Below are positions 18,801 to 46,213 of a stretch of DNA of 64,000 bases, piece by piece (position 1 is the first letter of the stretch; each line of letters opens with the position of its first letter). Source of the DNA: Haplodiscus bocki. Lineage: Eukaryota. The stretch lies in assembly GCA_965655095.1 (NCBI GenBank), contig OZ296650.1:4154001-4218000 (forward strand), written 5' to 3'. A model generated the notes under the pieces. That model did no database searches. It was not told where the DNA came from and saw only the letters and a program-made list of their open reading frames with translations. The translations under genes and the position numbers were made by a program.

Positions 18801-20434
18801 GATCTTATGGGTTACAACGCTCCGAAACATGCTTTACGAATTACTGGAGGCATTCCAGGAGCCAAGCTTAGGCCAGAAACCGTTTAAAGGTGGCAAGAAT
18901 CTGTAGACAAGCGGAAAAGGTTGGTGCAACGTCGCGTTTTTGTTTTCAAACGCAAAAAGGGGTGAAACTGGGCAAAATTCAGAAGTGTCAACTTCTGAGC
19001 AAAAAATTTAATCTTGAATTGGTTTTTTCGGGGACTGTTTTTGGTATTCTTTGGCTCAAACCGCTGACGCGTTTTTCATTTGTTTTTTTTTCAGTGATTT
19101 TTTCAAGACAAAATGGTGACTATGCAAAACTTTCTCTTCATTTTTCTGTTCTTCTGTGTTCTGCTGTTTTTTTGACGGCCTATAATGTTCTCAGGTCCTA
19201 TCCTCTGTTCTTGCCATTTGCTGCTGACAGTAAGCGTTAAAAACAAACAAACAAACACATATTTTGAGGGAGAGCAAAGGCTGCTTTGACGCTCAGCGAT
19301 CCTGTTTCAGGTGCTAGTCAGTGTCCCTGAGGTGTAAAAGCAAAAACTGAAATGGAGCAAAGCAATCCTCGGGATTGGTCCCAATGTTACAAAAAATTGC
19401 AGATTAACGATTACTATGAAGTTCAAATTAGCAAACAATTGCTACCTTTTGCCACAAAATTGTCGCATATTGCTTGATAAGTACCGGTATACGTGCAAAA
19501 CACATTCTGGAGAGTTGTAATTTCCTCATGACTTGAAAAAGACCAAAAAAACACCCCCTCCGGTACTGAGTTTTACCGATCATGGGCTGTAGTATTTGAT
19601 TCTCCATAATCTATTTCTCACGACACAGCTCCGCTACAGTTTCGTTATGGTCATCAATCAAGAGTAGAGTGTACAAGAAAGCAGCCAGAGGATCGGCGAA
19701 GAGAATGATCAGATATATTATAAACATAGAGATTTTTTGTAAACTTACTCATGTTGGTAAATGTCGAAAAACTCTTTGAATCTTTTATAGGGTTCTTTTC
19801 GGAAAATTCGGGCCTATGGTTTGCCGCTGGTGGGCGGTCATTTTCTTCCCATCTTTTCTTTTCTCTCCTTGTCAAGCTTTTGTTTTCTTCAGTCATCTGT
19901 CGATTCAGGCGGCGTCAACTGTCAAAATCTTGGAACAACCACGTTTTTGCCCAAACTGACGTTCAGGTACTTAGAAAGAGATTTGACCACCCAGCCGAAA
20001 CTTTTTTGCTCACTGTCTGAATAGAGTAAAAAAACTTCGAACTTCTTCCAAAATATTGTATTGGGCTTCTGATGTTTCCTTTCGACACACCAAATTTTCG
20101 ACACACCTTGTAACAACACCAGATTTTTGAGAAAACTCGAAAAATTTTGGAGTTCATTTTAGAAAAAAAAACGAAAAGGTTTTTTTCAGCATCTTGATAT
20201 GTAATTTTTAACCAATATGGTTTGCCGGGAACAAAAAATAACAAAACAACTCCAGTAGTGTGTAAAAAGGCATTTGACGCCAAAAGACGCGGACGCAGCA
20301 AAAACCAAGCAGAAAATAATGAAAATTAAACTATGTCAAGGGAGGTAGACAGGAAAAAATTTTTAACATACCTGTTTTTTCTCCACCACACGTACGAAAG
20401 CGTGTATACATAATACCACATTTACGTCTACGTA

Positions 20435-21172
20435 AACTTGTGAAGCAACGGTAAAATGAACTTGCACGTGTATTTTTTTACGTTTACGTGATATTGAAAA
20501 AATGTATACAAAAACTAGTATTTCTTTTTCTTCTTCGCCTCCTATAGCCTAGTGGTATTTGTTACATTGACTAAAGTTAAGCCTGTGCTTGCATATTCGT
20601 CGTGTTTGTGGTTCACGACTAACCAACGTCCCACTGTCTATGTCAACATCACGCACAAAAGCTATATGGAGGAACTGTCGATGTCTTGAAGCTTGATAAA
20701 GTACGTGTGATCGACGGGGATATCCACCAGGAACGCTCACTCGATAGACAGCTGAAAAGCTAGACACGAAAGTTGGCCAGTGGATATTTTTTGTCATAAA
20801 CGAAAACACGATTTCTGAGAAATATTCACACTATGTCGACATACCTTAAACATGTAGAGATATAAAACTTTGAGCTACAACAAAGTGTGATTTGTCATTC
20901 GTTGGCCCGTTAAAAGTTTAGTGTACCCTGAAAATTTCAACCCCATATCTATCATAATCTTCGAGAAAATTAACAGAAACAGAAAATGTCGACATACCTT
21001 AAACATGTAGAGATTACAAAAGTATGTTAAATTGTAAGATTTCTTTTTCTTAGATAGAATTCTATCATAGTATCTTGTATTTCTTTGTCCTCATAGAATA
21101 TACTTTTTAGATTTGTCGTTATTTTTAACATGTCTAGTCTTTTCGAAGTATTCTTTTAATTTTACAACCATT
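20435..21172 (+). repeat. Polinton left terminal inverted repeat
   Basis: Reverse complement of ~38235-38819, plus an extra 153 bp unit bounded by the 29-bp direct repeat 'atgtcgacataccttaaacatgtagagat' (20833-20861, 20986-21014). Confidence 0.93.
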
Positions 21173-21193
21173 TATAAGAAAGCAAATAGGATA

Positions 21194-21517
21194 TTATTTG
21201 TCATTATCATTTAAATTATGTCTATTAGTCTGTTGTTCGTCTCTAATCAATTTCTCAAATGAGAGCATGTATAATATGTTTTCTCTTAAATAATGAATAT
21301 TTTCAATAATTTTTTCAACATCATTTTCGTAAATTTTTAAAATTACATCGTCTATTATAGATAAACTTACAAGAATTCTACTATGTGGAATTGTTTTATA
21401 AAAACTGTTAGTTATACATTTACGTACTTGATTCAATTCTACTGTAATACCTATGTTTGTATAATCATAAAAGACTGAAGCATTACAAAAATTTAATATA
21501 CCTTTTACACTCTCCAT
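21194..21517 (-). CDS. Polinton hypothetical protein (107 aa)
   Basis: Open ATG-initiated ORF in the left minus-strand cassette; no motif recognised. Confidence 0.6.
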   Translation of the reverse strand: MESVKGILNFCNASVFYDYTNIGITVELNQVRKCITNSFYKTIPHSRILVSLSIIDDVILKIYENDVEKIIENIHYLRENILYMLSFEKLIRDEQQTNRHNLNDNDK

Positions 21518-21549
21518 TTGTTATACATAAAACATGTCACCAATCACAC

Positions 21550-21936
21550 CTAATCATAATTTGAATGAATTTTATATATTTCCAATTCTTTAAAAGATTC
21601 CTCCTCACATGGATGCATCCGATTCAAATTAGTATCGTAATCAATCTTATCCTTTTTAATAAATTTGAAATTCGGAGTCAACAGATAATAATTTTCTTTA
21701 CCCGTAGTTATACTATTAGGACATAAATTATTTCCCATGTTCGAGATATATTCATAAATACTATCACCAGTAACAAAACTACACACCACATCACCACCAA
21801 AATATACATTTTTATGTCTACCATTTTCTTCACTTATTTTTAGTAAAATGGTATTTCCATCAAATACTGATTTATTCAAGGCTCCAGAAAACTTAGTCAT
21901 ATTACATACTTGGCTTTTACCTAAAAATATTCTCAT
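21550..21936 (-). CDS. Hypothetical protein resembling a family found in giant viruses (Nucleocytoviricota)
   Basis: 'IFLGKS…MTKFSG…FDGNTILL…VYFGGDVVCSF.T.D.I.EYISNMGNN..P….G.ENYYLL' recalls Mimiviridae-type hypothetical proteins (recalled pattern, not searched). The frame stays open upstream to ~22010. Confidence 0.55.
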   Translation of the reverse strand: MRIFLGKSQVCNMTKFSGALNKSVFDGNTILLKISEENGRHKNVYFGGDVVCSFVTGDSIYEYISNMGNNLCPNSITTGKENYYLLTPNFKFIKKDKIDYDTNLNRMHPCEEESFKELEIYKIHSNYD

Positions 21937-22044
21937 CGGCTTTGCACAATTTATAGTATTTTCATCATTTGAGATAACTTCGATTTTCTGTACTTTAACA
22001 CATCCATTATTTTATATGTTACTCCATAACATTTACAATTATTT

Positions 22045-22867
22045 TCAGTGATATATATTATAGTCATTTATAGAGAGAAAATCACATTTAGTAAAATCAT
22101 GGAAATGACGTTCTCGACAATGCTGATTATGTTTATAATATCTATCGTGTGCGACTTTTGAGTAATGCTTCTTCCATTTTTTAGGAATATTATCACATCT
22201 TAAATAAACGTTCGCAACATTTTTTTGAATTCTTCCTTGTATTCTAATTGTCAATTCGAGAGCTCTATCTAATAAGTTTAATCATCCCTTTAGACGATTG
22301 CATTATTTTTTTCACTTTTCCAATAAAGTTCATATGTTCAATCATAATGTTTTTTGTTTTGTTTTCTATTTTATGAAAAAATTTAACATTACATTTAACA
22401 TTAACTTTTCTATAATAATAATAGCCATTTTTTTGATTATATTCAAGTTGTGTGTTTTTTTTTGTAATATTATTTATTTCAAAAAATTTCGGATTGATAT
22501 AAATAAGTTCACTAGTAACAAACATTTATATAATTCAATTTCTTTGAAATAAAATCACGACAATGTCGTAAATTGGTTACCAGACTCTTTTAAAAAATTG
22601 TGAGTTGGTTTTACTTTCCAGACATTCAATTCCACTAATTTTCATTTTTAATTCTATATCTAAATCTCTTATTGTTGTACCCACTATATTTATCAATTCT
22701 TTAAGAACAACATTCTGAATTGAATTATCATTTCCTATTTTCGATTGATAATTATAAGGTAATCTATTATATCTATCTAACATATCGTTTATTTTATTTC
22801 GTACTTTGGGATCTTTTTTAATTACATTTATAAGAGCTTCCGTTTTAATAATGATAATTCTTTTCAA
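22045..22867 (-). pseudogene. Polinton hypothetical ORFs (fragments 22045-22254, 22265-22525, 22577-22867)
   Basis: Closely packed minus-strand ORFs; the one at 22525 starts in TAAATG context. Confidence 0.5.
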
Positions 22868-22885
22868 ATAATCTTATCTTAATAA

Positions 22886-23071
22886 ATGAATAGTGATATT
22901 CAACAAGTTATTTGCTGTGAAGATGGAGAATATAGAGTATTCTGTGATATTTGTGATGAATTATGTATAGAACGATATTATAAAAATAATTTAACATCAA
23001 AAACTCTTACTAATAATATTCGTAAAAGAGACCAATTAAATAAATCATTTCAAATAAATCTACCTAATTAA
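22886..23071 (+). CDS. Small zinc-finger-like protein
   Basis: 'YRVFCDICDELCIERYYKNNLTSKTL': CxxC with decayed His ligands; TAAATG start. Confidence 0.55.
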   Translation: MNSDIQQVICCEDGEYRVFCDICDELCIERYYKNNLTSKTLTNNIRKRDQLNKSFQINLPN

Positions 23072-23073
23072 AT

Positions 23074-23616
23074 ATGACTCCTCTTTCTGAAGTATGTGAT
23101 CGATCGATTATCGAAAATCAATCTGGATACAATAATTATCTAGCTACCTTACATAAAAAAGATCATAAAAGTTTATATAAAAAATGTACTAATAATAATA
23201 GTAAATTGGATGAAGTTATTAAAATATTAAACGATTATATCTCTAATCAAAACAAATTTTTTGATTATTATTTTAATAATTGTGAATTTGTAATAGAATT
23301 TGATAATAATTTTATAGCAAATATAAAAATTAATTTTTTTTAAAATACAGATACTATCAATATAAATAGACATTTATTATATGATATTGATTGTTTTAAA
23401 ACAAGAGGACTCAAATTTTATAATGTCAATCAAATGACAATCAATATAAATAGTGATAGGTGTAATATGACATATGAACATTATATTAATTAACCAATGC
23501 ACGCTGTTGAAAGAAAGATAAAAATGAATATTGCTGGAAATCCACAATTGATAAAGTCATTAGATCGTAATAAAAATCATCCTCTTATCAGAAACTATTT
23601 ACATATACCATTTGAT
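23074..23616 (+). pseudogene. Polinton hypothetical protein (frameshifted)
   Basis: Track ORF 23074-23343 continues after a T-run frameshift into '…CNMTYEHYIN*PMHAVERKIKMNIAGNPQLIKSLDRNKNHPLIRNYLHIP'. Confidence 0.6.
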
Positions 23617-23625
23617 AACTAATAA

Positions 23626-23814
23626 TTGTACATAACAAATGTTACTGATGATTATAACAATACTTTATCAAAAAGTAATATTTGTACAAACAGTGATAAT
23701 AATATTGAGATAATAATACCTTTATTTACAATCTTCCCATGTGGAATGTCACTTGCATGTTTAATATCGCTAATAGTATATACGCTAATTAAACCTTTAA
23801 TAGGTAAAAAATAA
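23626..23814 (+). CDS. Small single-pass membrane protein (62 aa)
   Basis: Polar N-terminus with NVT/NNT sequons, long hydrophobic stretch 'IIIPLFTIFPCGMSLACLISLIVYTLI', basic KK tail; start codon is TTG. Confidence 0.55.
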   Translation: MYITNVTDDYNNTLSKSNICTNSDNNIEIIIPLFTIFPCGMSLACLISLIVYTLIKPLIGKK

Positions 23815-23842
23815 ATCTCCGATGTAACATATGCTTTAATAA

Positions 23843-24574
23843 ATGACAATTGATAAAATTCTCTATCCAAATCATCCAGTCAGATGTATTATAACAGGAC
23901 CTAGCGAATGTGGAAAATCAGAAATTATAACAAATATAATTTTAAATATCATAAACGAATATGATGAAATATATATCTACTCACCGAGTTTACATCAAGA
24001 TTTATATCAAAAATTAATTAAATGTTTCAGTAATTATATACCTATTAACATAATACCAAATATTTTAAATGAAGAAGATATTGATATAGTAATTGAAGAG
24101 ATAGTTAATAATAAAGGCTTCGATAAATCTGATACTGAAATAGAGACATATGAATCAATTGAAGAAATAAGTTTTCCACAGGACTATGAAAATAATGGTA
24201 TAATTATCCTAGATGATTTAAATGAAAAAGAAATTAACAATGATAAAATACAAGCGATGTTTAAACGAGGACGTTATAATAATTTATCTATTTTCATAAT
24301 CAGTCAAGATTATTACGAACTACCAAAGAGAACAAGAAGAGCTACTGGAAATATCTATCATATATTCGAACCAAACAATTTCTTAGACGTTAGTATTATT
24401 TATCAAGACAAAGCAAGTATCGATATGACATTAGATGAATTTAAATACTTAACTAGTACTTGTTGGAATGAAAAATATCAACCTTTTCTTATTGATATGA
24501 CAAAAGACAAGTTCTGCGGTCGATATCGATTAGGATTAAATTCAATATTTGTTCCTGATAGCTCTCCGTTTTGA
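23843..24574 (+). CDS. Genome-packaging ATPase (A32/FtsK-HerA family)
   Basis: Walker A 'GPSECGKS', Walker B 'IIILDD', arginine-finger region 'FKRGRYNNLSIFIISQ'; intact 243 aa. Confidence 0.93.
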   Translation: MTIDKILYPNHPVRCIITGPSECGKSEIITNIILNIINEYDEIYIYSPSLHQDLYQKLIKCFSNYIPINIIPNILNEEDIDIVIEEIVNNKGFDKSDTEIETYESIEEISFPQDYENNGIIILDDLNEKEINNDKIQAMFKRGRYNNLSIFIISQDYYELPKRTRRATGNIYHIFEPNNFLDVSIIYQDKASIDMTLDEFKYLTSTCWNEKYQPFLIDMTKDKFCGRYRLGLNSIFVPDSSPF

Positions 24575-24619
24575 AAAAAAATACTTACAATTTTATTCGA
24601 ACACATTTACGATACTTAA

Positions 24620-25486
24620 ATGAGTATCTATTCTAATGTGACAGAAGAAGATTTGAATAATTTACGTAAATTAGCCGATCTGCAGAAAACTCAAAGAGCC
24701 CTTAATTTTAAAAATAGGATTTTGAAACAAACTCATGATATAAAATTAGCAGAAAGTTTCTCACCAATAAGTAAAAAATTAGATACTATTAAAAAATCCA
24801 CTAAACAATTAGGTGAAACAGTTAAAAAATCAAATGTTGAAGATGGCCACTCTCAAACACCAGCTATAGAAAATACAACAACCTCACAATCATTACGCGA
24901 CACTTTGTCATTTATGAGGACAAGTGAAAACTTCATCAAATTAGAACAAAGAGATCGTGGTGAAGTATTTTGGAATGGTGTATTTATTAAACCATATGGA
25001 GAAAATAGAGTTCGTGTTAATGATCAAGAACATGATATAACTCCTGATGTACAGGCATATTTCACTAATACAAAATTCACTACTAAATTTTTGGATAATA
25101 TTGAAAAAGAAACTGTGTCTGAAATAGATAAAAATGTTAGATTTCATGAAAATATACCTAAAATAGGTTTTAATTCAGCTAGAATGAAAATTGCTTTATA
25201 TAATCTTCCAAAAGAAATAGCTAAAATTCGAAATCCACCTTTACCAACAATTGAAATTGTAGAAGATTCTAGTGATCTAGAAGGTAAAAGAGGAAAAAAA
25301 AATGTCATCCCTTCAAACATAATTGATATCTACACTACATTACAAATCTTTCTAGGATTAAAAATATCAGGCCATACTGATACTCTAACAGAAGCTAGTA
25401 ATTTAATTGATGATTTATATAAAAGAGGTGAAATACAAAATGAACAACAATATCGGAATGCTCTTAACGAATTTTCTTCGCGTTAA
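24620..25486 (+). CDS. Conserved Polinton virion-module protein (288 aa)
   Basis: Intact ORF between ATPase and penton; C-terminal 'IYTTLQIFLGLKISGHTDTLTEASNLIDDLYKRGEI' resembles the LxxxxxAGN…E…ixdeL motif common in Polintons. Confidence 0.7.
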   Translation: MSIYSNVTEEDLNNLRKLADLQKTQRALNFKNRILKQTHDIKLAESFSPISKKLDTIKKSTKQLGETVKKSNVEDGHSQTPAIENTTTSQSLRDTLSFMRTSENFIKLEQRDRGEVFWNGVFIKPYGENRVRVNDQEHDITPDVQAYFTNTKFTTKFLDNIEKETVSEIDKNVRFHENIPKIGFNSARMKIALYNLPKEIAKIRNPPLPTIEIVEDSSDLEGKRGKKNVIPSNIIDIYTTLQIFLGLKISGHTDTLTEASNLIDDLYKRGEIQNEQQYRNALNEFSSR

Positions 25487-26262
25487 ATGGAACTTCCAAG
25501 TAAAGTATTAGAACAAATAGCTTTCAATACAAGACTTAAAGTAGAGGAGCATATTTTGATAGTTATGTATTAAAGTACTCGTGAAGAGCACCATTATCAA
25601 CCACTGCAAACTAATAATAAACAATTTAAAATATCTGTTACTTTTCTATCTGCTTATGACGGTATTTTCAATGTTACAAACTTGAATAAAAAGTTTTATT
25701 TCAAGAAAAAGCACTTACTGTTGAGGATTTTATTCAAATATTAATTCCCAAGGGAGCTTACGAAATAGAAAATTTGAATACGGAAACCAATCGAAATATT
25801 ATTGCTAAAGGTCAATATAGTGAAAAGGAATATCCATTCATGATAAAACCAAATTTTAGTACATTGTGTAGTATTTTAGAAATAAAGCCACAAGGACCGA
25901 TAATTGGTTTGTTGTTTGAGGATAGTACTGGTGAGCTTCTAGGGTTTAACGAGACTATTTTATGGAAAGAATATACTCTCTCACCTAATATTATATCATA
26001 TGATAATATATTCATTGAAACTAATATTGCCAAAGGAATGATTTTTAAAGGAAGACGAACTGGTATTATTCATAATTTCACTATGGATGTCAATCTTGGG
26101 TATAAGTACGTTGAAAAATATCGTGGTGGAGTTCAATTGTATATGATGCATAGTAAAGATTTTATTTCACATATTAATAAAAATTTAATACATGAAAATG
26201 GTAATTTAGTATCATTCAACGGTCAATCAATAACATTTAGATTGTCAATCATGGAAATATAA
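25487..26262 (+). pseudogene. Minor capsid protein (penton, single jelly-roll), frameshifted
   Basis: 'GIFNVT…IPKGAYEIENLN…IFIETNIAKG…GIIHNF…LIHENGNLVSFNGQSITFRLSI'. Confidence 0.85.
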
Positions 26263-26280
26263 GTATTTAATACTTTATAA

Positions 26281-26505
26281 ATGCCAAAGAATTTAATAAA
26301 ATCAAGATTACATTCTAATGAACACAAACCTAAAATTAAACAGGAACCTAACAAAACTCAATCTAATTTAACTCCAAAACTACAGTCTTTGAAACAGAAA
26401 TTATTATCAAGAAATGGTTTTGTTGAATATAAATACTTTTTTATAAATCATGATTACTTGAAAAAGTATCATAAACAGAGGTTTAATATTGACAACGTTT
26501 ATTAG
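26281..26505 (+). CDS. Small basic hypothetical protein (74 aa)
   Basis: TAAATG start, Lys-rich, lies between penton and MCP. Confidence 0.5.
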   Translation: MPKNLIKSRLHSNEHKPKIKQEPNKTQSNLTPKLQSLKQKLLSRNGFVEYKYFFINHDYLKKYHKQRFNIDNVY

Positions 26506-26520
26506 TTTTCTAATACATAA

Positions 26521-27805
26521 ATGAGCTTAGAAGATTTTGAATTATTAGATAATGAACCATTTGATAAATCTATTATAAAAAGAGATTTTCTAAAAATATA
26601 TCATCAACAAGGCGCTAATTTAAACAATTCAGATCAAAATTTTGTTTTCATATTTGGTGAAAATAAAATTTATCATCAGATTGGGAATGCTTATTTTGAA
26701 TTTGATATAACAGTACGAAATCCTATTGCTAGTTTGGCCGACGACGCTGCTATAAGGTTGTTTAATAATGGTTTAGCTTATGTGTTTAAAGAAGCAAGAC
26801 TGAGTACTACCTCAGGAGGTGATCTAGAGCATAATACTTTTGTTGGTAAAGTTTCTCCTATTATGAGAGTTTTAACTAGTAAAATGGTGATTTACTATGA
26901 CAATTTGATAATATTAATGAAGAAATAGGTGCTGATGATGATGAAACCTCGGATAATATCCGTAGTATTTCTTTGAACAAAATGAATATTAATAATCCCT
27001 CCGAAGCTAATAGAGGAAGAATAATAGGTCAAATAACATTAGAGCATATATTCGGTTATTGTAAAAAATTTAAAAAGATTACTAAAAATCTCGGGTTTCA
27101 CCTAACATTTAGAACTGCCAATCTACAAGATGTTATTTATACAACATTAGCAGATGCTGTTCGAGTTAATGTAACAATTAACAGTTTATATTTATAAGTA
27201 CCATTTTTAAATCCTAGTACTGAAACACAACTTTTACTCAATGAATCCCCTGAAAAAAACTATAGAATTTTTTTTGATGAATGGTATACAGAAAGAAGAA
27301 TTGTTACAGATCAAGCATATCAAGTTGATATCGGATCAGCACAATCAGTTGATAGTCCAATATTTTTAATTTGTGCTCATCATACAGATGATAGATCAAA
27401 TCTTCCAAGCAAAAGAAGAAATATCTCAATTTTTGATAATCATGATGTAAGAAATTTTTTCATTGAGTAGACGGTATTCGTTACCTTCGCGATAGTGTTC
27501 TTACAAACTATGGATTAAATGATTATCTAGACCAATATAAAGTTGTTAAATTTTTTTATGAAGAATATGTCGTTGAAGAATTATTAAATCCATTTATATC
27601 TTACACTGATAAGACAAACAAATGTCCTATCCAAGTAATAGATCTTAGGTTTCAAGTAGATCACATAACCCCCAAAAAAATTCAATTATTCGAAGAGCGT
27701 AGAGCCGATCCAGCCAATGCTAGATTATTTGTTATATTAATAAAACGAAGAGGAATTGAAATGATTTCAGATGGAAATAAATTCGTTGAGGTCAAAGGTA
27801 TATAG
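26521..27805 (+). pseudogene. Major capsid protein (double jelly-roll), disrupted
   Basis: ~425 codons from 'MSLEDFELLDNEPFDKSIIKRDFLKIYHQQGANLN…AYFEFDITV…LFNNGLAYVFKEARL' through 'TLEHIFGYC…KITKNLGFHLTF' to 'EMISDGNKFVEVKGI*'; several stops and frameshifts. Confidence 0.88.
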
Positions 27806-27874
27806 TTACTCATATTCAGATATTAACTATCATCATACTTGTATGAATAAGTTATCTTATTTCTAATTATAAAT

Positions 27875-28273
27875 ATGAAAATATGAAACTTTAAAGATTT
27901 TATGAAAAAATATAAGTTGAAAATTGATACTATGAATGAGTCACAACTACAGACAATTTATAATTATCCTATATATCCTAGAGATTCTAAAATATATTCA
28001 GATAAAGGATTTGTAAATATAGACAATGGTAGTACGGGAGGAAATCATTGGACTTGCTTTTATATAGAAGATAACGAATCCTAATATTTTGTTAGTTTCG
28101 GTTGTCAGCCAGATAAATTTCCACTCAATCAATTACTTGAACCAATAACCTATCATAATTATATTATACAAGACATAAGTTCTAAATTATGTGGATCATA
28201 TTGCTGATACTTTTTCTATTTAATTGAACGGATGAATTATTATGATACAATTCTAAAAATGTATTTTCGGTAA
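27875..28273 (+). pseudogene. Adenain/Ulp1-like maturation cysteine protease
   Basis: 'VNIDNGSTGGNHWTCFY…YFVSFG…IQDISSKLCGSYC': catalytic His, Gln and Cys present, Asp mutated; in-frame stops. Confidence 0.88.
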
Positions 28274-28281
28274 TTTTAAAA

Positions 28282-29616
28282 ATGCCTATTAACGTATTTG
28301 GTAATAGTAACTCACATGATAATGGTAACAAAATCGATAATTCTCTATTTGTACAAAAACCATATTTGAGGACTAATTATTTAGAAGCAAACATCGAAGA
28401 AGATATTGACATAAAAAATCAATATAAAATTAAAAATCTACCTTGTCCTCAAAAAAACTCAGATGCTGTTTGTAAATTTTATGTAGACAATTTATTCAAC
28501 GATCCTGGTATGTTAAAAAACACTGCACATATTGATCTGAAAGATAGAAATATCACTAACGCAAGATTTAACCAAGTCAATCAATTGCCTCAAATCGACT
28601 CTCATTTAACAGCTAAGCTATATGTTGATAATGCTATAGACGAATCATCTTTAGTTAGCAATAATCAAGATAATGATTTTAACAATAATGACCTAACTAA
28701 TATAATTAGTATTACGTTGAATAAACAAGCAGAAAATGATAATGAAGTCATTACTAAACCTATGTGGATCAATTTCATCAAGAAAATGAACGATCACGAC
28801 GAGATTTAAGAATTGATTTTTATGATATAGCAAATGTCTTGGTAAAGAACAATCAAGGTTTTGACTTCAATGACAAGAAATTAACAAACATAGTTTCTAT
28901 AATAGTTAATAGAAATCCTAATTCAGATAACGAGCTATCAAACAAAAAATATGTAGTTGATTCAATAGGAGAAGATACAATAGTTAGATTTAATCAAACA
29001 CTACAAAACTATCTCAAAGTATCTGTTGGTAATGATACTTATAATTTGACTAAATATAATAAAATATAAATTATAGATACAACAAGTATCTAATATCCAA
29101 ACGTCGGGGGATATCTATTAAAATAGTGGAATATCAAATGTAACGCTAAAAACAACAATGTTAAAAAACAAATTTTTATACGTTCATCAAAAACACACAG
29201 GCCTACATCTCATTCGGGAGCAACATCTTTATCACCCATCGGTTTTGCGTTTATGTATATAGAGACAAGTTCAAACAATCATGGACCAAATGTATTCGTC
29301 AGCTGGCAGAGAACTGATATCATTCAAATAACTAATATAACATTCTATCACAACAGATTTTCAATTTTAACTGATGATAATTTAAAAAATATGGGTCGTT
29401 TTAGAATTCAGTTATTGTTAGGTTATAACACTTGGAGTACTCATTATACAATACCTCAAAAGAGTCAATATAGTGATAATCCAATTGATTGGACATTACT
29501 AAAATTAGTTTTTACTGTAAAAAAATTATAATATTAAACTAGTTCTAGATCAAATCGATACGGCACTTTCTGATATGTGTTTTTCAAATATAACAATAAC
29601 ACATTCTGTATTTTAA
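28282..29616 (+). pseudogene. Putative fibre/adhesin: four K-x-YVD stalk repeats plus a C-terminal MAM-like domain
   Basis: Repeats 'KIKNLPCP…DAVCKFYVD', 'LTAKLYVD', 'VITK.YVD', 'LSNKKYVV'; head 'FMYIETSS…ITFYHNR…MGRFRIQL…W…DW…IKL…DMCFSNITI'. Confidence 0.7.
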
Positions 29617-29884
29617 ATGAATTATGAAAACTTTTTTAAAGTTTTTTTCGAATCAATACCAGATTATAGAAAGATTGTCTTTTTAGTATTCTTAATCCAA
29701 AATGAATTTAGTATTCTTAATCCAAAATGAAAAAGATTTATTACGCGAGGTTGGTTTTAGTGAACGTGATATTAACCGTTTAAATTTAGAGTTCAAAAAC
29801 TTTTCAACAGAACAACATGAGGAATACTTAGATTATATTAAAAATGAAGAAGAATCAATAATTGAAAAGACATTAAATAAATAA
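29617..29884 (+). pseudogene. Hypothetical protein broken by a 25-bp tandem duplication
   Basis: TAAATG start at 29617; 'tttagtattcttaatccaaaatgaa' occurs twice (29682-29731). Confidence 0.65.
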
Positions 29885-30219
29885 ATGAAAGATATTACAC
29901 ACAAACGATTGTTATTATTATTACTATCTTTGACAGAATTATATATTTTTATAACCAAGTGTATTAAATTATAAGATTTTGATTAGGTAAATGGAACAAT
30001 ATTTCTCAACTTTGTTTGAAGATGTTATACATGGACGTTCAATAAAATTATTAGTGTAACTAACAGATCCAGACATATTGAAACAATCCAAATTCACAGA
30101 TGATGAAATTAATATAACAAAAAACTGGCCCTTGAAAAAATACACCGCCAAAAGTGTTCAAAGGATTATTTTGCTTTACAATTTTTAGAAAAGTATTTTG
30201 CGTTTAATAAATTCGTGCA

Positions 30220-30825
30220 AAGCCCAATTTGGAAAATGATCCAGAATTGTTACAGAGAAAAACAAGAGATGATGGGATTAAAAATCTGAAATATCAAACA
30301 GAAAAACATGATCATTAGATTATTTTAAAATCTCCTACAATTGATAATGAATATTATAAAAAAAGTACAAGATTTTGAATATAAAGAAAATATTAATAAT
30401 TATCACTGAAATTTCTATCGGATCAAGATCAGCAATAGGTAGTTCAACAATGGAACTGATTAATCCAGGTGCTGGCAATTTTATTTCAATTAGTACCGCT
30501 CTAATAACTAGTATTGCTATCTTAATCACTAACGAATATTTTAGTAAATTCAAAATAAGGTATACTAACTTGTGTGATTGGATTATTGTTATTACACTGC
30601 TATATGAAAAGACTTTGAAAACTTCTATGGTTGATAAGAAAATTGATGAAAAAGAAGCACAAGGATTGAAAAAGCTTTATAATCATTATGTTGATAAAAA
30701 GATCTGAACTCATGAAAAATACTCAATTCAAAGTAGAAGATGTTTATGGCGAAGTTATAAGTAAAGATAATTTGAGTCAAGATCAAATAACCAAACTTAA
30801 TAGTTTTTTAGCGAATTTATTGTGA
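30220..30825 (+). pseudogene. Two-helix membrane protein typical of Polintons/adintoviruses
   Basis: 'YKKKYKIL' followed by hydrophobic Gly/Ser/Ala-rich helices ('ILIIITEISIGSRSAIGSS', 'ISISTALITSIAILIT') and 'KTSMVDKKIDEKE'. Start approximate. Confidence 0.6.
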
Positions 30826-30932
30826 ATATAAATATAAAAGTCAATTTTAACTTTTTCAAACCTATAATGAAAAAAAGTATTGATATTGAACCCAATGCTC
30901 CTACGTATTACGAAAAAATCATTTGTATATAA

Positions 30933-31089
30933 ATGATAAAGACGTGGTGCCTCGGAGGTTGTCATTATAGTAACACTAATAATATAACTCAATAAGAAGA
31001 GAAACCCTATGACTGAGAAACTTGTTAAAATTATCAGTGGAACTTGTAGTATTTGCGGTCGTAATAAATCACAAATTTTTACTAAGTAA
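30933..31089 (+). pseudogene. Small zinc-ribbon protein (DUF5679-like)
   Basis: 'MIKTWCLGGCHYSNT…KIISGTCSICGRNKSQIF'; TAAATG start; one frameshift. Confidence 0.6.
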
Positions 31090-31532
31090 ATGACTCGAGG
31101 AGAATCTTTTGTTAAAAATGCAGAATGTACACACGGACGTCGATCAGCTATGAGTAACTCAGCTTGATGTGATTTAAAAAAAATTGTACTGTGTTGAAGT
31201 TACATGATATGTGCCATAATCCAAAACATAATTGCTAAAAGCAGATAACTTTTCGTCTTAGGTAATTTCAATTAGAAGGTAATGGGTTTAAAAATACAGT
31301 GAAAAAAAATTTCAAGGGATCTCAAACAGCTTGGAATAAATTCTTGAAACCGACGATAAATACACTGGCACCAGTGATAGGGATGGCTGTTGGAGCAAAG
31401 AGTAAAAATAAACAAGTTGGAGCTGCAACGACTAATATATTAAAGAGTATAACTGGAGAAAGAATCCTGAGCCTGACGGACATGCATGGGCACGGTGTAA
31501 AGTTGAAATTAATGTGGAATCATTTCAAATAA
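31090..31532 (+). pseudogene. Putative protease-processed core/membrane-active virion protein
   Basis: Cys/His-rich N-terminus, then 'LEGNG-FKNTVKKNFKGSQTAWNKFLKP…' and 'MHGHG'; both fit the adenain consensus (M/L/I)xGx/G. Confidence 0.55.
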
Positions 31533-31548
31533 AATTTCAATATTAAAA

Positions 31549-32130
31549 ATGGATGATGATTTGAAGAGATGCTCCAAATGTGAAAATATACAATTGAAGG
31601 GTAATTTTCATGAAAAATCAAGATCTAAATATGGAATAACACCACATTGCAAACGAAAAATTCTTAGAAAAAAATACTATGATGAAGATTTTGATTTAGA
31701 GATTAATAGACGTAGAAAATACCGTGTTGATACTAAAGAAAAAATAAATGATTATAATAAAAAGACAAGAGAATCAGATCTAAATTTCAAATTAGTTTGT
31801 TGTTTACGATCAAGAACATCATCAGCATTCAAGTCTAAAAATATTAAGAAAACGAATAAAACTTTTGATTTATTAGGATGTTCTCTTTCGTTTTTTCGAA
31901 GATGGATTATTCATCAATTATATGGTAATATGACTATTGAAAATTATGGGTCCATTTGGCAAATCAACCACTGTTTACCAATAGCATCATTTAACCTATT
32001 GAATGAAAATGATATGAAGAAATGTTTCGATTGGGTTAACTTAAGGCTTATGTTTTTTACTGAAAACAACTCAAAGAAAGCAAAAATTGATCACTATCTA
32101 TATCTTTGTCAAGAGGTGAAAGCTAAATAA
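31549..32130 (+). CDS. HNH-type endonuclease with an N-terminal zinc finger (type common in large DNA viruses and phages)
   Basis: 'KRCSKC…F…G…HCK', 'LRSR', 'DLLGCS', 'MTIENYGSIWQINHCLPIASFNL…KCFDWVNLRLM…ENNSK'; the usual DH is NH here. Confidence 0.78.
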   Translation: MDDDLKRCSKCENIQLKGNFHEKSRSKYGITPHCKRKILRKKYYDEDFDLEINRRRKYRVDTKEKINDYNKKTRESDLNFKLVCCLRSRTSSAFKSKNIKKTNKTFDLLGCSLSFFRRWIIHQLYGNMTIENYGSIWQINHCLPIASFNLLNENDMKKCFDWVNLRLMFFTENNSKKAKIDHYLYLCQEVKAK

Positions 32131-32143
32131 TTTATGAAATTAA

Positions 32144-33001
32144 ATGCCCAAGAAGGACAGAACGAAAATATTCATTGATGAGATATTTTCTGAACCACCT
32201 GAGAAAACTTATGAAACCAATAAAATATTTTATAATCTTATCGATGAAATCTGGAGTATTGATTTGGCTGACATGATTGACTACAAAGTTTCAAATAACA
32301 AAGGATACAGATGTATATTCATCATCATTAACATTTTTAGTGAATAATTGTGGGATATACCTCTTAAAAATAACTCTAGTCAAAATATCACAATTGAATT
32401 TTCAAATATTTTAACAACCTGAAAACGAAAGCCTCTCAGAATAGAATCTGATAGAGGTACTGAATTTTATAATAGTATTTTCCAAAATTTTTTAAGAAAT
32501 AGAAATATACCTAACTTTTCAAGATTCACAGATAAAGGACCTTCAATAGCTGACCGTGTTATTAGAACAATACGTAATTTGTTAAAGAAACCAGTCTTTT
32601 TAGCAGGAAACGCTGATTGGTTAAGTGAACTTCCATGTGTTTTTAAACAATATAAAAAAACCATTCACCATTCAATAAAAATGACTCTACTTCAGGTTAG
32701 TAAAAAATCAATTGAAAAACTAGTCTATTCCAATCTTTAGGATCAAAGAGATAAACAACTACCAAAATTTAATCTAGGTCAATTAGTCAGAACCGCAGAT
32801 GTTAAAAGTGTCTTTAGCAAGGGTGATAGTACAGACTATAGTTATAAATTATATAAAATAACTGAAGTCATTCACGATACTATACCATCATATAGATTCA
32901 ACTATTTACCCGAGAGATATAATCAAAACCTCTTACTACCAACTAAATTAACTCTCGATGAAATTAATAAAAATATGAAAGAATTAAATTTAATTCAATA
33001 A
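32144..33001 (+). pseudogene. Retroviral-type (rve, DDE) integrase of the Polinton
   Basis: 'WSIDLADM…NKGYRCIFIII', 'IESDRGTEFYN', 'IADRVIRTIRNLL', 'HHSIKMT', 'KFNLGQLVR…FSKG'; in-frame stops. Confidence 0.92.
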
Positions 33002-33011
33002 TAAAATAAAA

Positions 33012-34334
33012 CTTGAAAGGAATTAACAAGAGATGAAATACTTGAAAAATATGCTAAACATTGTGGTCATTGCCATCGAAATACATTATTACCATACGAA
33101 TATGAATGGACTTATATTTCATGCGGATTCAACTTAATAAAAAAACACCAACTCTCTAAATGTTCTAAAAAAAAAAAATTCCATCACTCGATTGAATTAT
33201 GCTGAACACTAAATATTTTGCATATGTGTAGATGTGTACAAACTTTATGAAGGTAATGATTATGATAAAATATACGAAGCTTTATCAACATTAGAAAATA
33301 AAAAAGTAAAAGTAAACAAAATCTTAATCGAGAATTTTAAAAGAATGTTAGAAAATCCCAATTTTGGACAAGATTATTGGTCAAGAACTGCAGAAGGTAT
33401 TTTCAAAATCGGACATGATAGTATTAAAGAACGAAATGAGGATTTTATTAGCATCGATCTTATTATGATAATATGAAATATTATGATTTAAAGGGGTTCT
33501 GTTTGTAAATATGTAAATGAAATATCTCAATGGTGAACATTACGTTGAAGTAAAAATCATCGATTTAAAATTCGCCCCACTGAAAATAATATTTTACGAA
33601 AACGAGATCCTCCAACTTCATTGAGAACTCAATATCAAGTACAAAATGAGACTCAGATAAGGAAGAATCAGAAAGTAATCAAAAATGATAATGATGAATT
33701 AGTAGTTAAAAAATATCCTAAAAATAAGCAACCAATTATTCAAGAACGAAAAATTAATTTACCTTCATGTCCTAGTTTTAAACAAAAAAAATGGTCAAAA
33801 TTCGATAAAGGGTACCATTGCAAAAATTGTGAATACATTATCAACAAACAAAAACATCAGATTGATAAAAAAATTCGTAGACAAGATCATAATTTTTCTA
33901 TTAGATTAAATTATGCTAATAAAAAGATTAGAGAAATTTGGACGAATTTAGTTAACACTAAATATAATTCAACAGAAGATATGATTAAAAAATTACAACA
34001 GTTATAAGGAAAAACAAAATTAAATTTTTATAAAAATATAAGTAATTATTATGATAATTTGAATATTAAGATGGATGAAGATCCTTTTGCTAAAAATGCT
34101 CAAGGTATTAGTAAAATTTATCATGAAGTGTTATTACTGATGAAGTTTTTACAGACTAGACCACAGGTTAAAAATACGAATAGTAATTATTATGGTTTAT
34201 ATTATACCGTTATTAAAAATAGAAAAGAAAAACAAATTTTAGATAATCAATATGCAAATGATTATATTAATTTTATTGATAATATACCTAATCATTATAT
34301 TGAGATTAAACCTCCGGAAACATTTTTGAAGTAG
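33012..34334 (+). pseudogene. Polinton hypothetical ORFs with zinc-ribbon motifs
   Basis: 'KHCGHCHRNTLLPYEYEWTYISCG' plus track ORFs 33234-33476, 33621-34007 ('CPSF…YHCKNC') and 34059-34334. Confidence 0.5.
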
Positions 34335-34398
34335 AGAAAAATGAGATCTCAAATAAATCATTTCAAATAATTCTTACTATATAAATAGAGACGTAGAA

Positions 34399-37300
34399 AT
34401 GAGTAGCCGCAAATGTGAAATTTGTAATGTTGATGTTCATAGAGCATCTTATGTGAAACTTTTGAGAAGTAAAAAACACTTGGAAAATATGATAAAAGAT
34501 GAAATCATTATACCAGAATTGTTATTTAAAGATGAACAAGCACCTATTAAGAAACAAATAAAAATGTATATAACCCTAAAACATTAAAACAGATAGCCAG
34601 AGAAAATATTAAAATGAATGATAAAGAAGTAGAAAAAGACTTAGCTAAGAAGATGAATAATCCATTTTTTATGAGAATATAAAAATTGGTTTCAAAATTA
34701 ATCTAGAAAGTCATAATATTAATCATGCAAATTCTCTTATAACAATTACACCCAATTTTCCAGATATCGGTATTGAAACAAGATATATTGATGAAATCTC
34801 AAGAGAAATGGCTACTATTTACGCTAGATTAGAAAATCAATATAAATTCAGATATCAATTATTATTTTCAGCTAGCTTTTATAAGACTAACGAAGAAGAT
34901 CAACGAAGTGATAAAATTGAACTTTTTGTTAATTTGAATATTAACAATAATTTAACAGAATCTGATGTTGATAACATTGACATTAAATCTCAATTCGAAC
35001 ATCAACTTCAAAATAAAAAAACAAAGGAATCAGGTTGGATATTTGATAAAAATAATTCAATGAAAACCAGTTTCTATAAAACTGGTGAATTAAATGGTTC
35101 TTCTTATGTTAAAATTCCCTTGAGATCAAATGCTTTAATAAATATTCAAAGTGATGATAAATTTTGTTTCATTTGGTCAATATTAGCTAGTCTTCATCCT
35201 TGTGATAATGATCATCCTAATAGATTTTCAAATTAATCAAAATTTTTTAATGAATTAAACATTGATGGTTTTGATTTTACAAACGGATTCAAATGTAGTC
35301 ATGTTCACAAATTTGAAAAATTAAATAATTTATCTATAAACATATTTGAATTAAACTTTTACCAAGATAAAGATAAATGGAAACATAATTTAATTCCTAT
35401 AGAAATTAGTAAAAATGAATCAGATAAAGTTGTATATTTTATAATCTATAAAAATCATTATGCTCTCATTAAAAAGTTAAATGTATTTTTAGGAGATCAT
35501 CACAAAAACTTTATGTGTAGTCGATGTTTGAATTCATATACATTTGAAAATGCTTTAATGAATCATAAAGAAAATTGTGGCGATGATAATATTTGTACTA
35601 TTAGAACATCAAATGAATCCCATTTTTATTGGAAAAAACATTTTCATAAGAATATACTATATTTTAGATTACATGCTGATTTTAAAGCTGATAATGAAAA
35701 AGATAACTCTAGTGTAGGTAATAAAAGAGCTAATATTTATAAACAAAAACCCAGTACTTAATGGTTATCGTATGGAATCTGAATTGAATGTTATTTTACA
35801 AAGTGGTTGTTATGAATCTCCTCTAGGTTATAATAATGTTGGTTTGTAAACTAAGTTAAAAAATTAGTAAAATAAAATGGCTTTCTATTTTAAAAACACT
35901 AAGAAAGACATCATTATGACAAAAAAAGATAAGGAAGATTTTGCAATTAATAACATTTGTCGATTTTGTGCAAAAAAATATTTAATCTGATAAAGTTAGA
36001 GATCATTGCCACTTAACAGGTAAAAATGGAGGTCCAGCTTATGACATTTGCAATTCAAAAGTTAGTCAACAACAAAGTAATATTATTCCATTCATTTTTC
36101 ACAATTTTAGTATTTAGGATTGTCATGGGTTCTTCAAGAGATTAGTTGATTTAAAAAAGAATGATAAACTAAAATTTGATATAATACCTAAAACAAATGA
36201 AGAATACATATCAGTGACTTATGGTTGTATCAGAATTATAGATAGTTATAGATTCTTATCAAGTAGCTTAGATTCATTAGTTAAAAGATTAATTGAAAAT
36301 AGTCATGGAACATTGAAAAATTTGAAAACTGAAATTGTAGATAATGATGAAATATTCAAAATTGTTAATGAAATAGAAGAAGAGGATAGAAGTATTAAAA
36401 ATTTAAAAAAAATATCCAAATGAAATTGAGAAATTAGAAGAGGCTTTACTTACTTATCAGGGTGGACATGATCTTAAATTTTTGAAGACGGAATTTCCTG
36501 AGAAAATGAAGCTTTTGACTAAAAAATGAACCATATACATATGAATGTTTCAATAGTATTGAAGATTATCAAAAAAGCCTGTTAATATTTTAAAGAACGA
36601 ATGTTTTTTTAGTAAATTATAAAACGGTTATCCTAATGATGAAGAAACAAAAAGAACAAAGGAAATTGTTAGAAAATACGATATTAAAAATGGAGAAGAA
36701 TTGACACTATTATATATAAAAAGTGATGTACCTTTGCTTACTCTTACTTGTGTGTTTGAAAGATTTATAAAAGTGTCAGTTAATGAATTTGGTATCAATC
36801 CTCTATATTGTGTTACTTTACCAGGTTGTACTCGGCAATGTGGATTAAAATATACAGGAAGAAACTTACAAACACTTCAAGATATTGATTTGATTCTGTT
36901 ATTAGAAAATATTATACGAGGCGGTATAAGAAGTGTTATGGGTAAAAGATATGTAAAATCAGATGAAAATAAAAATATTTTTTATGCAGACGCTAATCAT
37001 TTTGATGGTCACTCAATGTCTCAACCGTTACCTTATGATGAAACTGAATTTCATAAGAATGTTAAATTGGAAGATATATTAAATACTCCCGATGATATTG
37101 ATATTGGTTTTTTCATTGAAGTTGATTTGACTTATCCTGATAATATAAAAGAGAAAACAAAAAATTTCCCGTTCGCTCCTGAAAATGAAAAAATTAATCC
37201 CGATAGTTTCACTGATTATATGAAAGAGATTATACCTGATAGTTATACTCAAACTGGAAAATTGATATGTGATTGATCTGATAAGAAATTTTATTCGGTT

Positions 37301-38235
37301 CATTATAGGATGTTAAAATTTTTTGTTAGACATGGAATGGTAGTAGAAAATGATCATACTGCTGTTTCATTTAAACAGAGTAAGTGGTTAGAAAAAAAAT
37401 ATAAGTTTTAACACTCAGAAACGAAATGAAGCTAAAAACGATTTCGAGAAAGACTTCTATAAATTATTAAATAATGCATTTTATGGAAAAACTATGGAAA
37501 ATGTTCGTAATCAAATAAAAGTAGAATTTATCAAAAAAGATGATGTTAATAAAAATATAAAACAACAATCTAAATTGACTTTCACTGGAATTCATAGGTC
37601 ATATGAATATTATGATAGTTATACATTCGAACAAAACGAAGTTCTTATGGATAAACCGATATACCTAGACTATAGTGTGTTAGAATTGAGAAGACTACAC
37701 ATGTATGAAACATATTATGGAAAGTTTCAATCATATTTCGGTCAGACAAATATACATCTACACTATATGGATACTGATAGTTTCGTGTTAAGTGTGAATA
37801 CAAAAGATATTATAGAAGATTTAAAAAACTTAGACGAAATTTTTGATTTTAATAATCTGGATGACAATCATGAATTATTCAGTAATAAGAATAAAAAATT
37901 GATTGGTTTTTTCAAATTTGAAACTCCTAAAAAAATTGGATTTATGAATTTATTTGTCTAAGAAGTATGATGTATGCGTTTAGTTGTGGGGATGATAGTA
38001 AAAATAAAATAAAAGGTATTTCTCAAAGTCAATCGAAAAATATTAAATTTGAAGATTATAAAAAAGGTTTCGATGGAATGGAATATCAAAGAGAATGTAG
38101 TATTTGCATTATTCGTTCAATTAACCATCAAATGCATCTTCAAGAAATAAAAAAAAATCGACATTATCTATTTTGGACGATAAACGATGTTATTTAAATG
38201 ACGCTGAAGGTGTACCATGGAATTATTATTATTGA
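34399..38235 (+). pseudogene. polB: Protein-primed family B DNA polymerase with an inserted endonuclease VII/HNH-like domain
   Basis: N-terminal 'CEIC…KKH'; 'ESGW…GSSYVKIP…INIQSDDKFCFIWSILA'; ExoI 'HADFKA'; 'KVRDHCHLTG'; ExoII 'FHNF'; 'DSYRFLSSSLDSLV'; Pol motifs 'YADANHFDGHSM', 'KLLNNAFYGK', 'YMDTDS', 'DDKR'; many frameshifts. Confidence 0.95.
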
Positions 38236-38819
38236 ATGGTTGTAAAAGTAAAAGAAAAATTTGAAAAGACTAGACATGTTAAAAATAACGACAAATATAA
38301 AAAGTATATTCTACGAAGACAAATAAATACAAAATACTATGATAGAATTCTATCTAATAAAAAGAAATCTTTTAATTTAACATACTTTTGTAGTCTCTAA
38401 ATGTTTAAGGTATTTCGACATAGTGTGAATACTTCTCAGAAATCGTGTTTTCGCTTATGACAAAAAACACCCACTGGCCAACTTTCGTGTCTAGCTTTTC
38501 AGCTGTCTATCAAGTGAGCGTTCCTGGTGGATATCCTTGTCGATCAATTGTACTTTATCAGGCTTCAAGACATGGACAGTTCCTCCATATAGCTTCTGTG
38601 CGTGATGCTGACATATTCAGTGGGACGTTGGTTAGTCGTGAACCACAAACACGACAACTATGCAAGCACAGCCTTAACTTTAGTCAATGTAACAAATACC
38701 ACTAGGCTATAGGAGGCGAAGAAGGAAAAAAAATACTAGATTTTGTATATATTTTTTCAATATCACGTAAACGTAAAAAAATACACGTGCAAGTTCATTT
38801 TACCGTTGCTTCACACGTT
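38235..38819 (-). repeat. Polinton right terminal inverted repeat (outer end truncated)
   Basis: Matches the left TIR up to '…ccgttgcttcaca' (38815), then unrelated sequence; has a single copy of the 29-bp repeat. Confidence 0.93.
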
Positions 38820-45479: not shown

Positions 45480-46213
45480 CTCGACATTATCATTTCGAAT
45501 GCGTCCTATGAGGGAACAGAAGGATGGAAGAATTGTTTGTTTCCCTACAGAGTCCTCATTCCTACTATGATTCCTTAGTAATTTAGGTAGTTTTTCCTTT
45601 TTGTGCATGGACGTTTTTCCCACCAAATAAAGAGTAGCTATGAATAGGAGAAATGAAAGTACATCACATAGAATTTAAATTTACTGATACTGTAGAAGCA
45701 GTTAGCGTATATATAAAAAACGTGACTGTTGAATTTCCTAATTTGCTTCAAACTAAAGTTCCCCAATTCAGTCTTGGTATACTGTTGACTCTTCCGCCCT
45801 TTTTTCAAGAATGGCAACTCTGAGAATTGGAAAAAAGTTATCAGCCACGAATGGGGAGAATCATGACGATTTTCCCAGGAACAACCAGGCTAGAAATGCA
45901 ATTTCTCCAAGAATCCAGGAACACTATATTACACAAATCTCAGAAGAAATTCAGTTTCCTGTGACAAAGAAAATGTCTCAGGAGTTCGGTAGGACAAAAA
46001 GTCGCATTTTGGGCGTCCTATGCCGCGGCTAGATGAGTTTTTTCAGAACCCACAAGCCCGGGTTCACTCCGGACCTGTTCCCGAGACATCTCGAAAGTTT
46101 GCAGAGAAAACGGCGGAACGATTGAAGACAGTTCCCAGAATGATCCTCATACCGAAGTGGGGTCTCATTGAGCCACTCTTAACAGAAATTAAACACAGAA
46201 GAGACCCCCTACA
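45480..46213 (+). mobile_element. 3' part of an LTR of the 1.7 kb type, containing the gag N-terminus (ATG 45811)
   Basis: U3 block 'gcgtcctatgagggaa…ggatgga', decayed TATA 'tatgaataggagaaatgaaagtac', 'MATLRIGKKLSATNGENHDDFPRNN…'; ends '…ctaca' 403 nt after the ATG with no TGG PBS following. Left edge not defined. Confidence 0.75.

Follow-up and report, generated by a model that had tools for sequence, protein, structure and literature searches.

Here we report that almost all genes of two families of Polinton/Maverick elements in the genome of Haplodiscus bocki carry a complete promoter of the poxvirus post-replicative type. A decayed copy of one such element, ~18.5 kb long, lies at positions 20254 to 38819 of the window, by which we mean the whole 64,000-nucleotide stretch analysed (assembly GCA_965655095.1, contig OZ296650.1, positions 4,154,001 to 4,218,000, forward strand). 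The start of its genes at TAAATG had led a preliminary description of the window to propose a poxvirus-type late promoter and a helper virus. That observation is confirmed and extended here, and the pox-helper interpretation, which is plausible, now has better support than before: judged from sequence, the elements likely parasitise a pox-like virus of the cytoplasm and would be transcribed by its RNA polymerase.

The genome spans 1.5 Gb, and a search with the packaging ATPase returned 15,878 first-look candidates (a figure that is not a copy count), of which 150 were scored. Family 1 was sampled as 30 copies, comprising the window element, 20 among the best ATPase matches and nine matches of a 62%-identical capsid; the first 20 copies are ~64–90% identical to the window element at the nucleotide level, depending on the segment. 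A PolB family search yielded two further lineages in the same genome, namely family 2 (nine loci, 40% GC), which serves as the control, and family 3 (seven copies, 27% GC), from whose counts a capsid-less palindromic element was excluded. Families 1 and 3 differ in gene order and share 27% identity in the capsid, 31% in the ATPase and 41% in PolB, values by which they are deeply diverged, and the family 1 capsid can barely be aligned to that of family 2. Gene starts were defined via N-termini common to copies, with clusters chosen by inspection (26 of 39, 11 of 15 and 12 of 37 kept across the three families); the family 1 clusters set aside were judged to be internal methionines or antisense.

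In family 1, TAA stands directly 5′ of the ATG at 473 of 589 orthologous starts, and TAAAT or TAAAA lies no more than 8 nt away at 551 of the 589. Counted by gene, TAA is present in half or more of the copies for 23 of 26 (P = 6e-25, binomial over genes). Family 3 has TAA|ATG at 65 of 65 starts in 11 genes. Upstream composition predicts a frequency of 0.053–0.063, and out-of-frame ATGs within coding sequence follow TAA in 304 of 5097 cases (0.060). The motif occurs at 1 of 62 starts in control family 2, at none of 16 host genes (three histones, eight tubulins, four Ras-family genes and RPC2) and at 6 of 106 open reading frames (ORFs) on twelve AT-rich viral contigs, two of which are Polinton-like. 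Unfiltered AT-rich ORFs gave 251 of 479 in family 1 and 55 of 76 in family 3, versus 3 of 160 ORFs in control-family loci. The enrichment is thereby confirmed over internal ATGs, composition and host-gene starts. A compositional artefact, arising from AT richness and an A-rich Kozak context, could draw on the low GC content of the elements (25–27%, versus 40% in the control family) and on the A/C-rich starts of host genes; it predicts ~6% where 80–100% is observed. We attach practically no weight to it, the enrichment, the AT-rich contig control and the permutation and conservation results given below having ruled it out.

Further elements lie upstream at fixed distances. With positions anchored on the T of TAAA, a T at −10 within a short T-run is found at a frequency of 0.88 across 29 genes, whereas 5000 permutations average 0.43 and reach 0.65 at most, and conservation across copies peaks only at this T (0.97) and at TAA (0.98–1.0), over a background of ~0.6. 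Most genes, among them those for capsid, packaging and integrase, fall in the T-run class. A second class, made up of PolB, endonuclease genes and some small zinc-finger genes, carries a fixed CATTTCAA box at −23 to −16, and this box keeps the same register before three polymerases: that of family 1 (0.86 of 21), an unrelated PolB swapped into some copies (0.88 of 8) and that of family 3 (6 of 6). Three box genes are without the T at −10 (0.00–0.04), and PolB and a 173-aa gene combine both elements. Across copies the PolB initiator lies 14–17 nt 5′ of the ATG in 13 of 16 starts and on the ATG in two. No early-type AAAANTGAAAA promoter class was seen in the elements.

This grammar mirrors that of vaccinia virus. 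Vaccinia late promoters are described as having TAAAT(G) overlap the start codon and a conserved T ten nucleotides upstream of it, and intermediate promoters as having TAAA and an AT-rich stretch 15–19 nt upstream, without such a T (PMC11980589). Both layouts recur here: in one class TAAAT(G) covers the start codon and T −10 lies in a T-run, and in the second TAAA is combined with an A-rich core located 15–19 nt upstream (PMC11980589, PMC5294985). By sequence, the match appears close for the late promoter and partial for the intermediate one. In contrast to vaccinia, the Polintons are without a recognisable RNA polymerase, and their box is fixed as CATTTCAA and can co-occur with T −10. The second spaced element, the second class and the occurrence in two diverged families thus support the promoter reading of the preliminary description, whereas dependence on a helper is something we still infer.

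A translation signal would be a very different explanation, either as stop–start coupling or re-initiation on polycistronic RNA, or as a trans-splice acceptor at the ATG. Two tightly coupled genes do use the upstream stop, at 23 of 24 and 18 of 21 starts, but TAA closes an upstream open frame at just 93 of 473 starts in family 1 and 3 of 65 in family 3 (96 of 538 overall), and it is also carried by the first genes of transcription units and by genes behind long gaps. Because AA rather than AG directly precedes the ATG (AG falls within the last 8 nt at 57 of 454 and 4 of 58 starts), a trans-splice acceptor is excluded. The PolB initiator lies 14–17 nt away from its ATG, the fixed-distance elements at −10 and −23 are predicted by neither version, and we regard a translation signal as very improbable. 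The preliminary description had cautioned that AT content, Kozak context and TAA-ATG coupling might account for part of the signal; they are insufficient, given the family 3, family 2, host and viral-contig controls together with the low stop-use counts.

The window element is AT-rich (~25% GC, with flanks at ~39%), and the majority of its genes are broken. Its features are as follows.

20254 to 38819: decayed Polinton/Maverick copy; AGTAGT at 20254 forms its left terminus, whereas the right one is missing; the termini were also determined in sister copies.
20435 to 21172: left terminal inverted repeat (TIR), matched part, 92–94% identical to the right TIR.
38235 to 38819: right TIR, matched part.
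21169 to 21187, minus strand: start of a small TIR gene, T-run and TAAATG.
22065 to 22083, minus strand: start of a broken ~177-aa gene, T-run and TAAATG; absent from the preliminary description.
22860 to 22888, plus strand: start of a small zinc-finger gene, decayed upstream box and TAAATG; box class.
23046 to 23076, plus strand: start of a variable zinc-finger gene, CATTTCAA box and TAAAT-ATG; box class.
23843 to 24574, plus strand: A32-like packaging ATPase, open frame, TAAATG start (PF04665, E 1.5e-9).
24620 to 25486, plus strand: conserved gene of ~290 aa, open frame, T-run and TAAATG.
25487 to 26262, plus strand: putative penton, assigned from size and position, broken near 25705, T-run and TAAATG.
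26281 to 26505, plus strand: small gene ahead of the capsid, T-run and TAAATG.
26521 to 27805, plus strand: major capsid protein in three pieces, T-run and TAAATG (PF21738 in an intact copy).
27875 to 28270, plus strand: cysteine protease, broken, TAAAT-ATG, His-Asp-Cys motifs.
28282 to 29615, plus strand: fibre-like gene, broken, T-run and TAAAA-ATG; labelled from position, no family match.
29617 to 31517, plus strand: five small genes (80 aa, 75 aa, membrane, DUF5679 and one that we take to be cupiennin-like); TAAATG retained in four (29617, 29991, 30933, 31090), the fifth start codon gone.
31521 to 32130, plus strand: endonuclease VII/HNH-like gene, CATTTCAA box and TAAAA-ATG; box class.
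32144 to 33001, plus strand: rve integrase, interrupted by stops, T-run and TAAATG.
33017 to 34331, plus strand: two zinc-ribbon genes, both broken; the 173-aa gene is box class with a decayed start, the 279-aa gene has TAAATG at 33517.
34359 to 34388, plus strand: PolB promoter, CATTTCAA box at 34359–34366 and TAAATAG at 34382–34388, 17 nt 5′ of the ATG.
34399 to 38225, plus strand: protein-primed PolB, split into nine or more pieces; identity with a PF03175-positive PolB is 38%.

Of 25 orthologous starts in this copy, 14 retain the exact motif, five (including PolB) carry variants, three keep TAA(A) and have lost the start codon, and three are decayed. All 14 TAAATG sites of the preliminary description, and its two TAAAAATG sites at the fibre and HNH genes, lie where it placed them. 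As gene starts, 12 of the 14 are orthologous starts common to other copies, and two are not. The site at 29885 opens a 29-codon ORF that matches the adjacent gene weakly (E 0.007) and probably represents a duplicated remnant, and that at 22525 on the minus strand, which has no homologue in the 29 other copies, probably arose by chance. Its list had passed over exact sites at 22067 (minus) and 33517 (plus) and the TAAAT-ATG variants at 23074 and 27875. PolB, said not to fit, has TAAATAG at 34382 behind its box, and the intergenic gaps, said to be mostly 0–50 bp, are not uniform, with per-gene medians of 53–925 nt in family 3.

The identity of a helper can be addressed from the initiator itself. 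A large DNA virus other than a poxvirus but with its own polymerase and a similar initiator, asfarvirus-like or from another Nucleocytoviricota lineage, would be a minor possibility. Late promoters of African swine fever virus (ASFV) are described with TATTT between −15 and −11 and a start at TATATA (PMC5294985), and a TAAAN initiator is also reported from yeast virus-like elements, so that the motif is wider than Poxviridae (PMC6211774). The ASFV late initiator is TATA and slips on AU, whereas the invariant part in the Polintons is TAAA(T) (PMC7163114). An ASFV-type TATA initiator was considered and rejected, as TATAA occurs in just 92 of 375 TAA starts in family 1 and 17 of 58 in family 3 (109 of 433), and only 8 of 320 gene ends have a poly-T terminator, which also speaks against an asfarvirus-like helper.

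Alternatively, the elements could be autonomous nuclear viruses read by host RNA polymerase II at a compact promoter, possibly steered by a zinc-ribbon factor, with the pox likeness arising by convergence. The composite splice-donor pattern bears on this: its observed/expected ratio is 1.07 and 0.93 in families 1 and 3, versus 0.10 in family 2, where all nine loci agree. This comparison leans towards non-nuclear transcription but falls short of proof, the copies being related and not independent, and the word GT[AG]AGT is under-represented in both families (0.46 and 0.28), as fits nuclear transcription. Integration likewise requires an element to reach the nucleus, and the genes of a coral polintovirus are reported to be expressed (PMC11131425). 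Two conserved zinc-ribbon proteins have sub-threshold TFIIB-ribbon matches (their models reach a predicted local distance difference test score of 50 and 43, and a single fold search was empty), but family 3 follows the same grammar with no homologue of either among its clusters. Gene ends show AWTAAA somewhat more often (0.57 versus 0.38), a comparison confounded by the TAAA of the next gene and by AT content; neither the 3′-end motifs nor depletion of AATAAA and TTTTTNT separated the models. The coding strands of families 1 and 3 retain 3.3–3.8 AATAAA per kb, and internal AATAAA in 118 of 133 and 28 of 28 long ORFs argues against nuclear transcription, as does the absence of the start motif from host genes and from the control Polinton lineage. 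For RNA polymerase II, the distance from TATA to the start is ~25–30 nt, and no gene can be served by a TATA-like sequence that lies on its own start codon. Overall, we consider a nuclear lifestyle improbable.

Transcription by a pox-like helper would work as follows. In a co-infected cell, free element DNA would enter the factory of the helper, where box-class genes, PolB first, would be read by intermediate-type factors and T-run genes by late factors. Vaccinia is reported to transcribe intermediate and late promoters from naked transfected DNA in trans (PMC3039670), which matches what a satellite needs. Initiation inside AAA would slip to give a 5′ poly(A) leader in place of the missing 5′ untranslated region; such leaders are described for slippage at TAAAT (PMC6211774) and would explain genes that have no such region. 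Progeny would be packaged in the element's own capsid, and the rve integrase would place a fraction of the genomes in germline chromosomes, where they would be silent in the absence of the helper and then decay as the window copy has, so that integrated copies would be a latent or dead-end record. Two marks of a virophage lifestyle, a helper-type motif at most genes and the absence of a recognisable RNA polymerase ORF, were found, the latter in 37 copies.

Besides the GT[AG]AGT depletion and the promoter layout of ASFV, several observations weigh against a pox-like helper. Known poxviruses are described from insects and vertebrates (PMC4542343), whereas the sequence analysis places the host no closer than animal-like, its RPC2 being nearer to the human than to the yeast protein, which would equally suit a helper of another kind. 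Searches of the assembly for a viral RNA polymerase found none, only three intron-split largest subunits and host-type second subunits; those for VLTF3, a capping enzyme and a nucleocytoplasmic large DNA virus capsid were empty, with uninformative controls. Among viral contigs, a scan for box plus TAAATG gave 26 matches, 25 of them not at the start of an ORF of at least 80 aa, and no candidate helper. The two promoter classes are not clean, PolB having the box plus T at −10 (0.90), and the CATTTCAA letters are absent from descriptions of vaccinia promoters, a comparison made by text and not logos. The control family likewise shows no depletion of AATAAA (0.97 versus codon shuffles), which makes that ratio non-discriminating, and one of 16 host genes reads TAAA-ATG. 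Finally, the family 1 copies were chosen as the best matches of two queries, so that close sisters may be missed. As a separate observation on the host enzymes, the gene for the second subunit of RNA polymerase III (L111:6601-9996) is one open frame of 1132 codons.

Membership in the Polintons is supported at several levels. A sister copy encodes PolB as a 1284-aa ORF that shares 38% identity over 1200 aa with a PF03175-positive PolB, although it gave no direct PF03175 match itself. The integrase is of rve type (PF00665, E 4.5e-13), and an A32-like ATPase (PF04665) and a double-jelly-roll capsid (PF21738) are present, with atlas neighbours labelled Preplasmiviricota or animal. The protease conserves His-Asp-Cys motifs with no family match, and the penton call stems from size and position only. 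Long TIRs are present, with clean 6-bp target-site duplications in 8 of the 17 copies having both TIRs; in the window copy the duplication was not recoverable. PF21738 is the sole family match of the capsid, no solved capsid was matched by profile, and neither comparison pointed to a virophage-type capsid. From these matches the capsid is of Polinton type, and the label virophage-like, as used in the preliminary description, holds only for the likely lifestyle: the elements are Polintons by membership and probably virophage-like in working. A profile search of 1.84 billion representatives returned 3001 capsid relatives, without names or DNA.

Of the 17 copies, 12 have TIRs at least 97% identical, while pairwise synonymous divergence (dS) between sampled copies is at least 0.13, with medians of 0.5–1.6, and the ratio of nonsynonymous to synonymous divergence is 0.12–0.21. 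On these values, the copies are young insertions from long-diverged lineages under purifying selection. High TIR identity together with high dS suggests repeated insertion out of a diverse replicating pool, a suggestion limited by best-match sampling. Contigs from two of four sequencing runs span all 30 bins of the window element, and several unique pieces show 0–1 differences, which shows presence only.

Variation among these lineages was also recorded. One family 1 PolB (L057:1763-6448) contains an intein bearing a LAGLIDADG endonuclease, and in some family 1 copies (L042:4556-7807) an unrelated PF03175-type polymerase takes the place of the standard PolB and keeps the same box and initiator ahead of it. 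Family 3 (L225-L238) has two penton-like paralogues of ~360 aa, with PolB and integrase oriented towards the structural genes. Family 2 (L203-L222, L239-L242), at 40% GC, has no motif, depleted splice-donor words and near-identical copies, including one near-identical pair, and is probably host-transcribed. A giant AT-rich inverted repeat of ~18 kb (L223, L224, L215, L216; G000:C4, ~88.367-88.385 Mb) carries in each arm a 1208-aa PolB and four to five small ORFs, one with a winged helix-turn-helix, and at its centre 41–42-nt tandem repeats and a palindrome. Its TIRs are family-1-like, its promoters are as in family 1, no capsid, ATPase or integrase ORF was seen in it, and it is possibly a capsid-less satellite. 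The adjoining ORFs are presumably HSP90-like. Elsewhere in the window, a unit of ~1157 nt, probably long-terminal-repeat-like, stands in four tandem copies at 8046-12656, with related copies right of the element at 45501-47620 and 52413-54068, and a 149-nt tandem repeat at 41246-41747 adjoins retrotransposon-like ORFs.

Compared with known systems, the elements have in common with Maverick-Polintons and adintoviruses (Polintoviricetes) a protein-primed PolB, rve integrase, A32 ATPase, double-jelly-roll capsid, cysteine protease, long TIRs, a 6-bp duplication and a length of 17–20 kb. Replicase swapping is a feature also described for Maverick-Polinton group 2 (bioRxiv 2026.06.19.733378), to which family 1 probably belongs. 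What distinguishes the window-type elements is the genome-wide, two-class pox-type promoter. The word 'promoter' is absent from the main texts of PMC8502044, PMC11131425 and bioRxiv 2026.06.19.733378, and no report of a TAAATG promoter grammar in animal Polintons was found in the literature covered, with supplements and most subscription papers outside its scope. Polinton-like viruses are reported from entomopoxvirus occlusion bodies, two of their capsids placed beside the mavpol2 clade (PMC11296320), and, like the elements here, have been proposed as poxvirus hyperparasites (Barth et al. 2024, PMC11296320). There the elements are tied to poxviruses through gene exchange and by occurring together with them, and the main text contains no analysis of promoters, whereas here the link is the promoter; AHEV_PLV1 is reported without a detected integrase, whereas our elements encode rve and are massively endogenous (PMC11296320).

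Virophages and their helpers are known to have common promoter motifs (PMC10945749). Mavirus and the endogenous mavirus-like elements of Cafeteria resemble the present elements in being integrated, in carrying protein-primed PolB and rve and a helper late-promoter motif, and in forming several types with distinct motifs per host; they differ in their protist host, their helper and motif (CroV) and their virophage capsid, and reactivation and protection were shown there by experiment, whereas the elements here are known from sequence (PMC10945749). Yeast pGKL elements also combine a protein-primed PolB with a box lying 20–40 nt upstream of the start and a TAAAN initiator at which slippage occurs, and a minority ATTTGA variant of the Polinton box matches pGKL ATNTGA; in contrast, pGKL elements have their own RNA polymerase and capping enzyme, no capsid and no integration (PMC6211774). 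Capsid and integrase scans of viral contigs for relatives outside the genome were empty. In a metagenome contig of 1.2 kb, a protease gene starts at TAAATG with no T at −10, and three distant Polinton-like viruses retrieved through PolB have roughly one TAA|ATG start apiece. Upstream of the starts, three metagenomic Polinton-like viruses (L277-L279) show another motif, in which A and T alternate.

The transcription of animal Polintons and their route to virions have long been a gap in knowledge, and no virions have been observed according to a preprint (bioRxiv 2026.06.19.733378). The promoter grammar splits the Polinton lineages of one genome into pox-type and host-type, and so offers a lifestyle test for animal genomes from sequence alone. 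Two predictions follow from it, namely a pox-like virus of this host and, as a molecular mark, leaders of 5′ poly(A) that begin at TAAAT. In a bolder reading, which we hold tentatively and at somewhat below even chances, a branch of animal Polintons would be endogenous poxvirus virophages, with two capsid lineages and a capsid-less satellite, an intermediate-to-late cascade run on an invertebrate pox-like polymerase, and thousands of insertions that record its circulation and could act as an inherited antiviral defence. If dependence on a pox-like helper is true, endogenous virophage biology, so far shown in protists, would reach animals, and at very high copy number.

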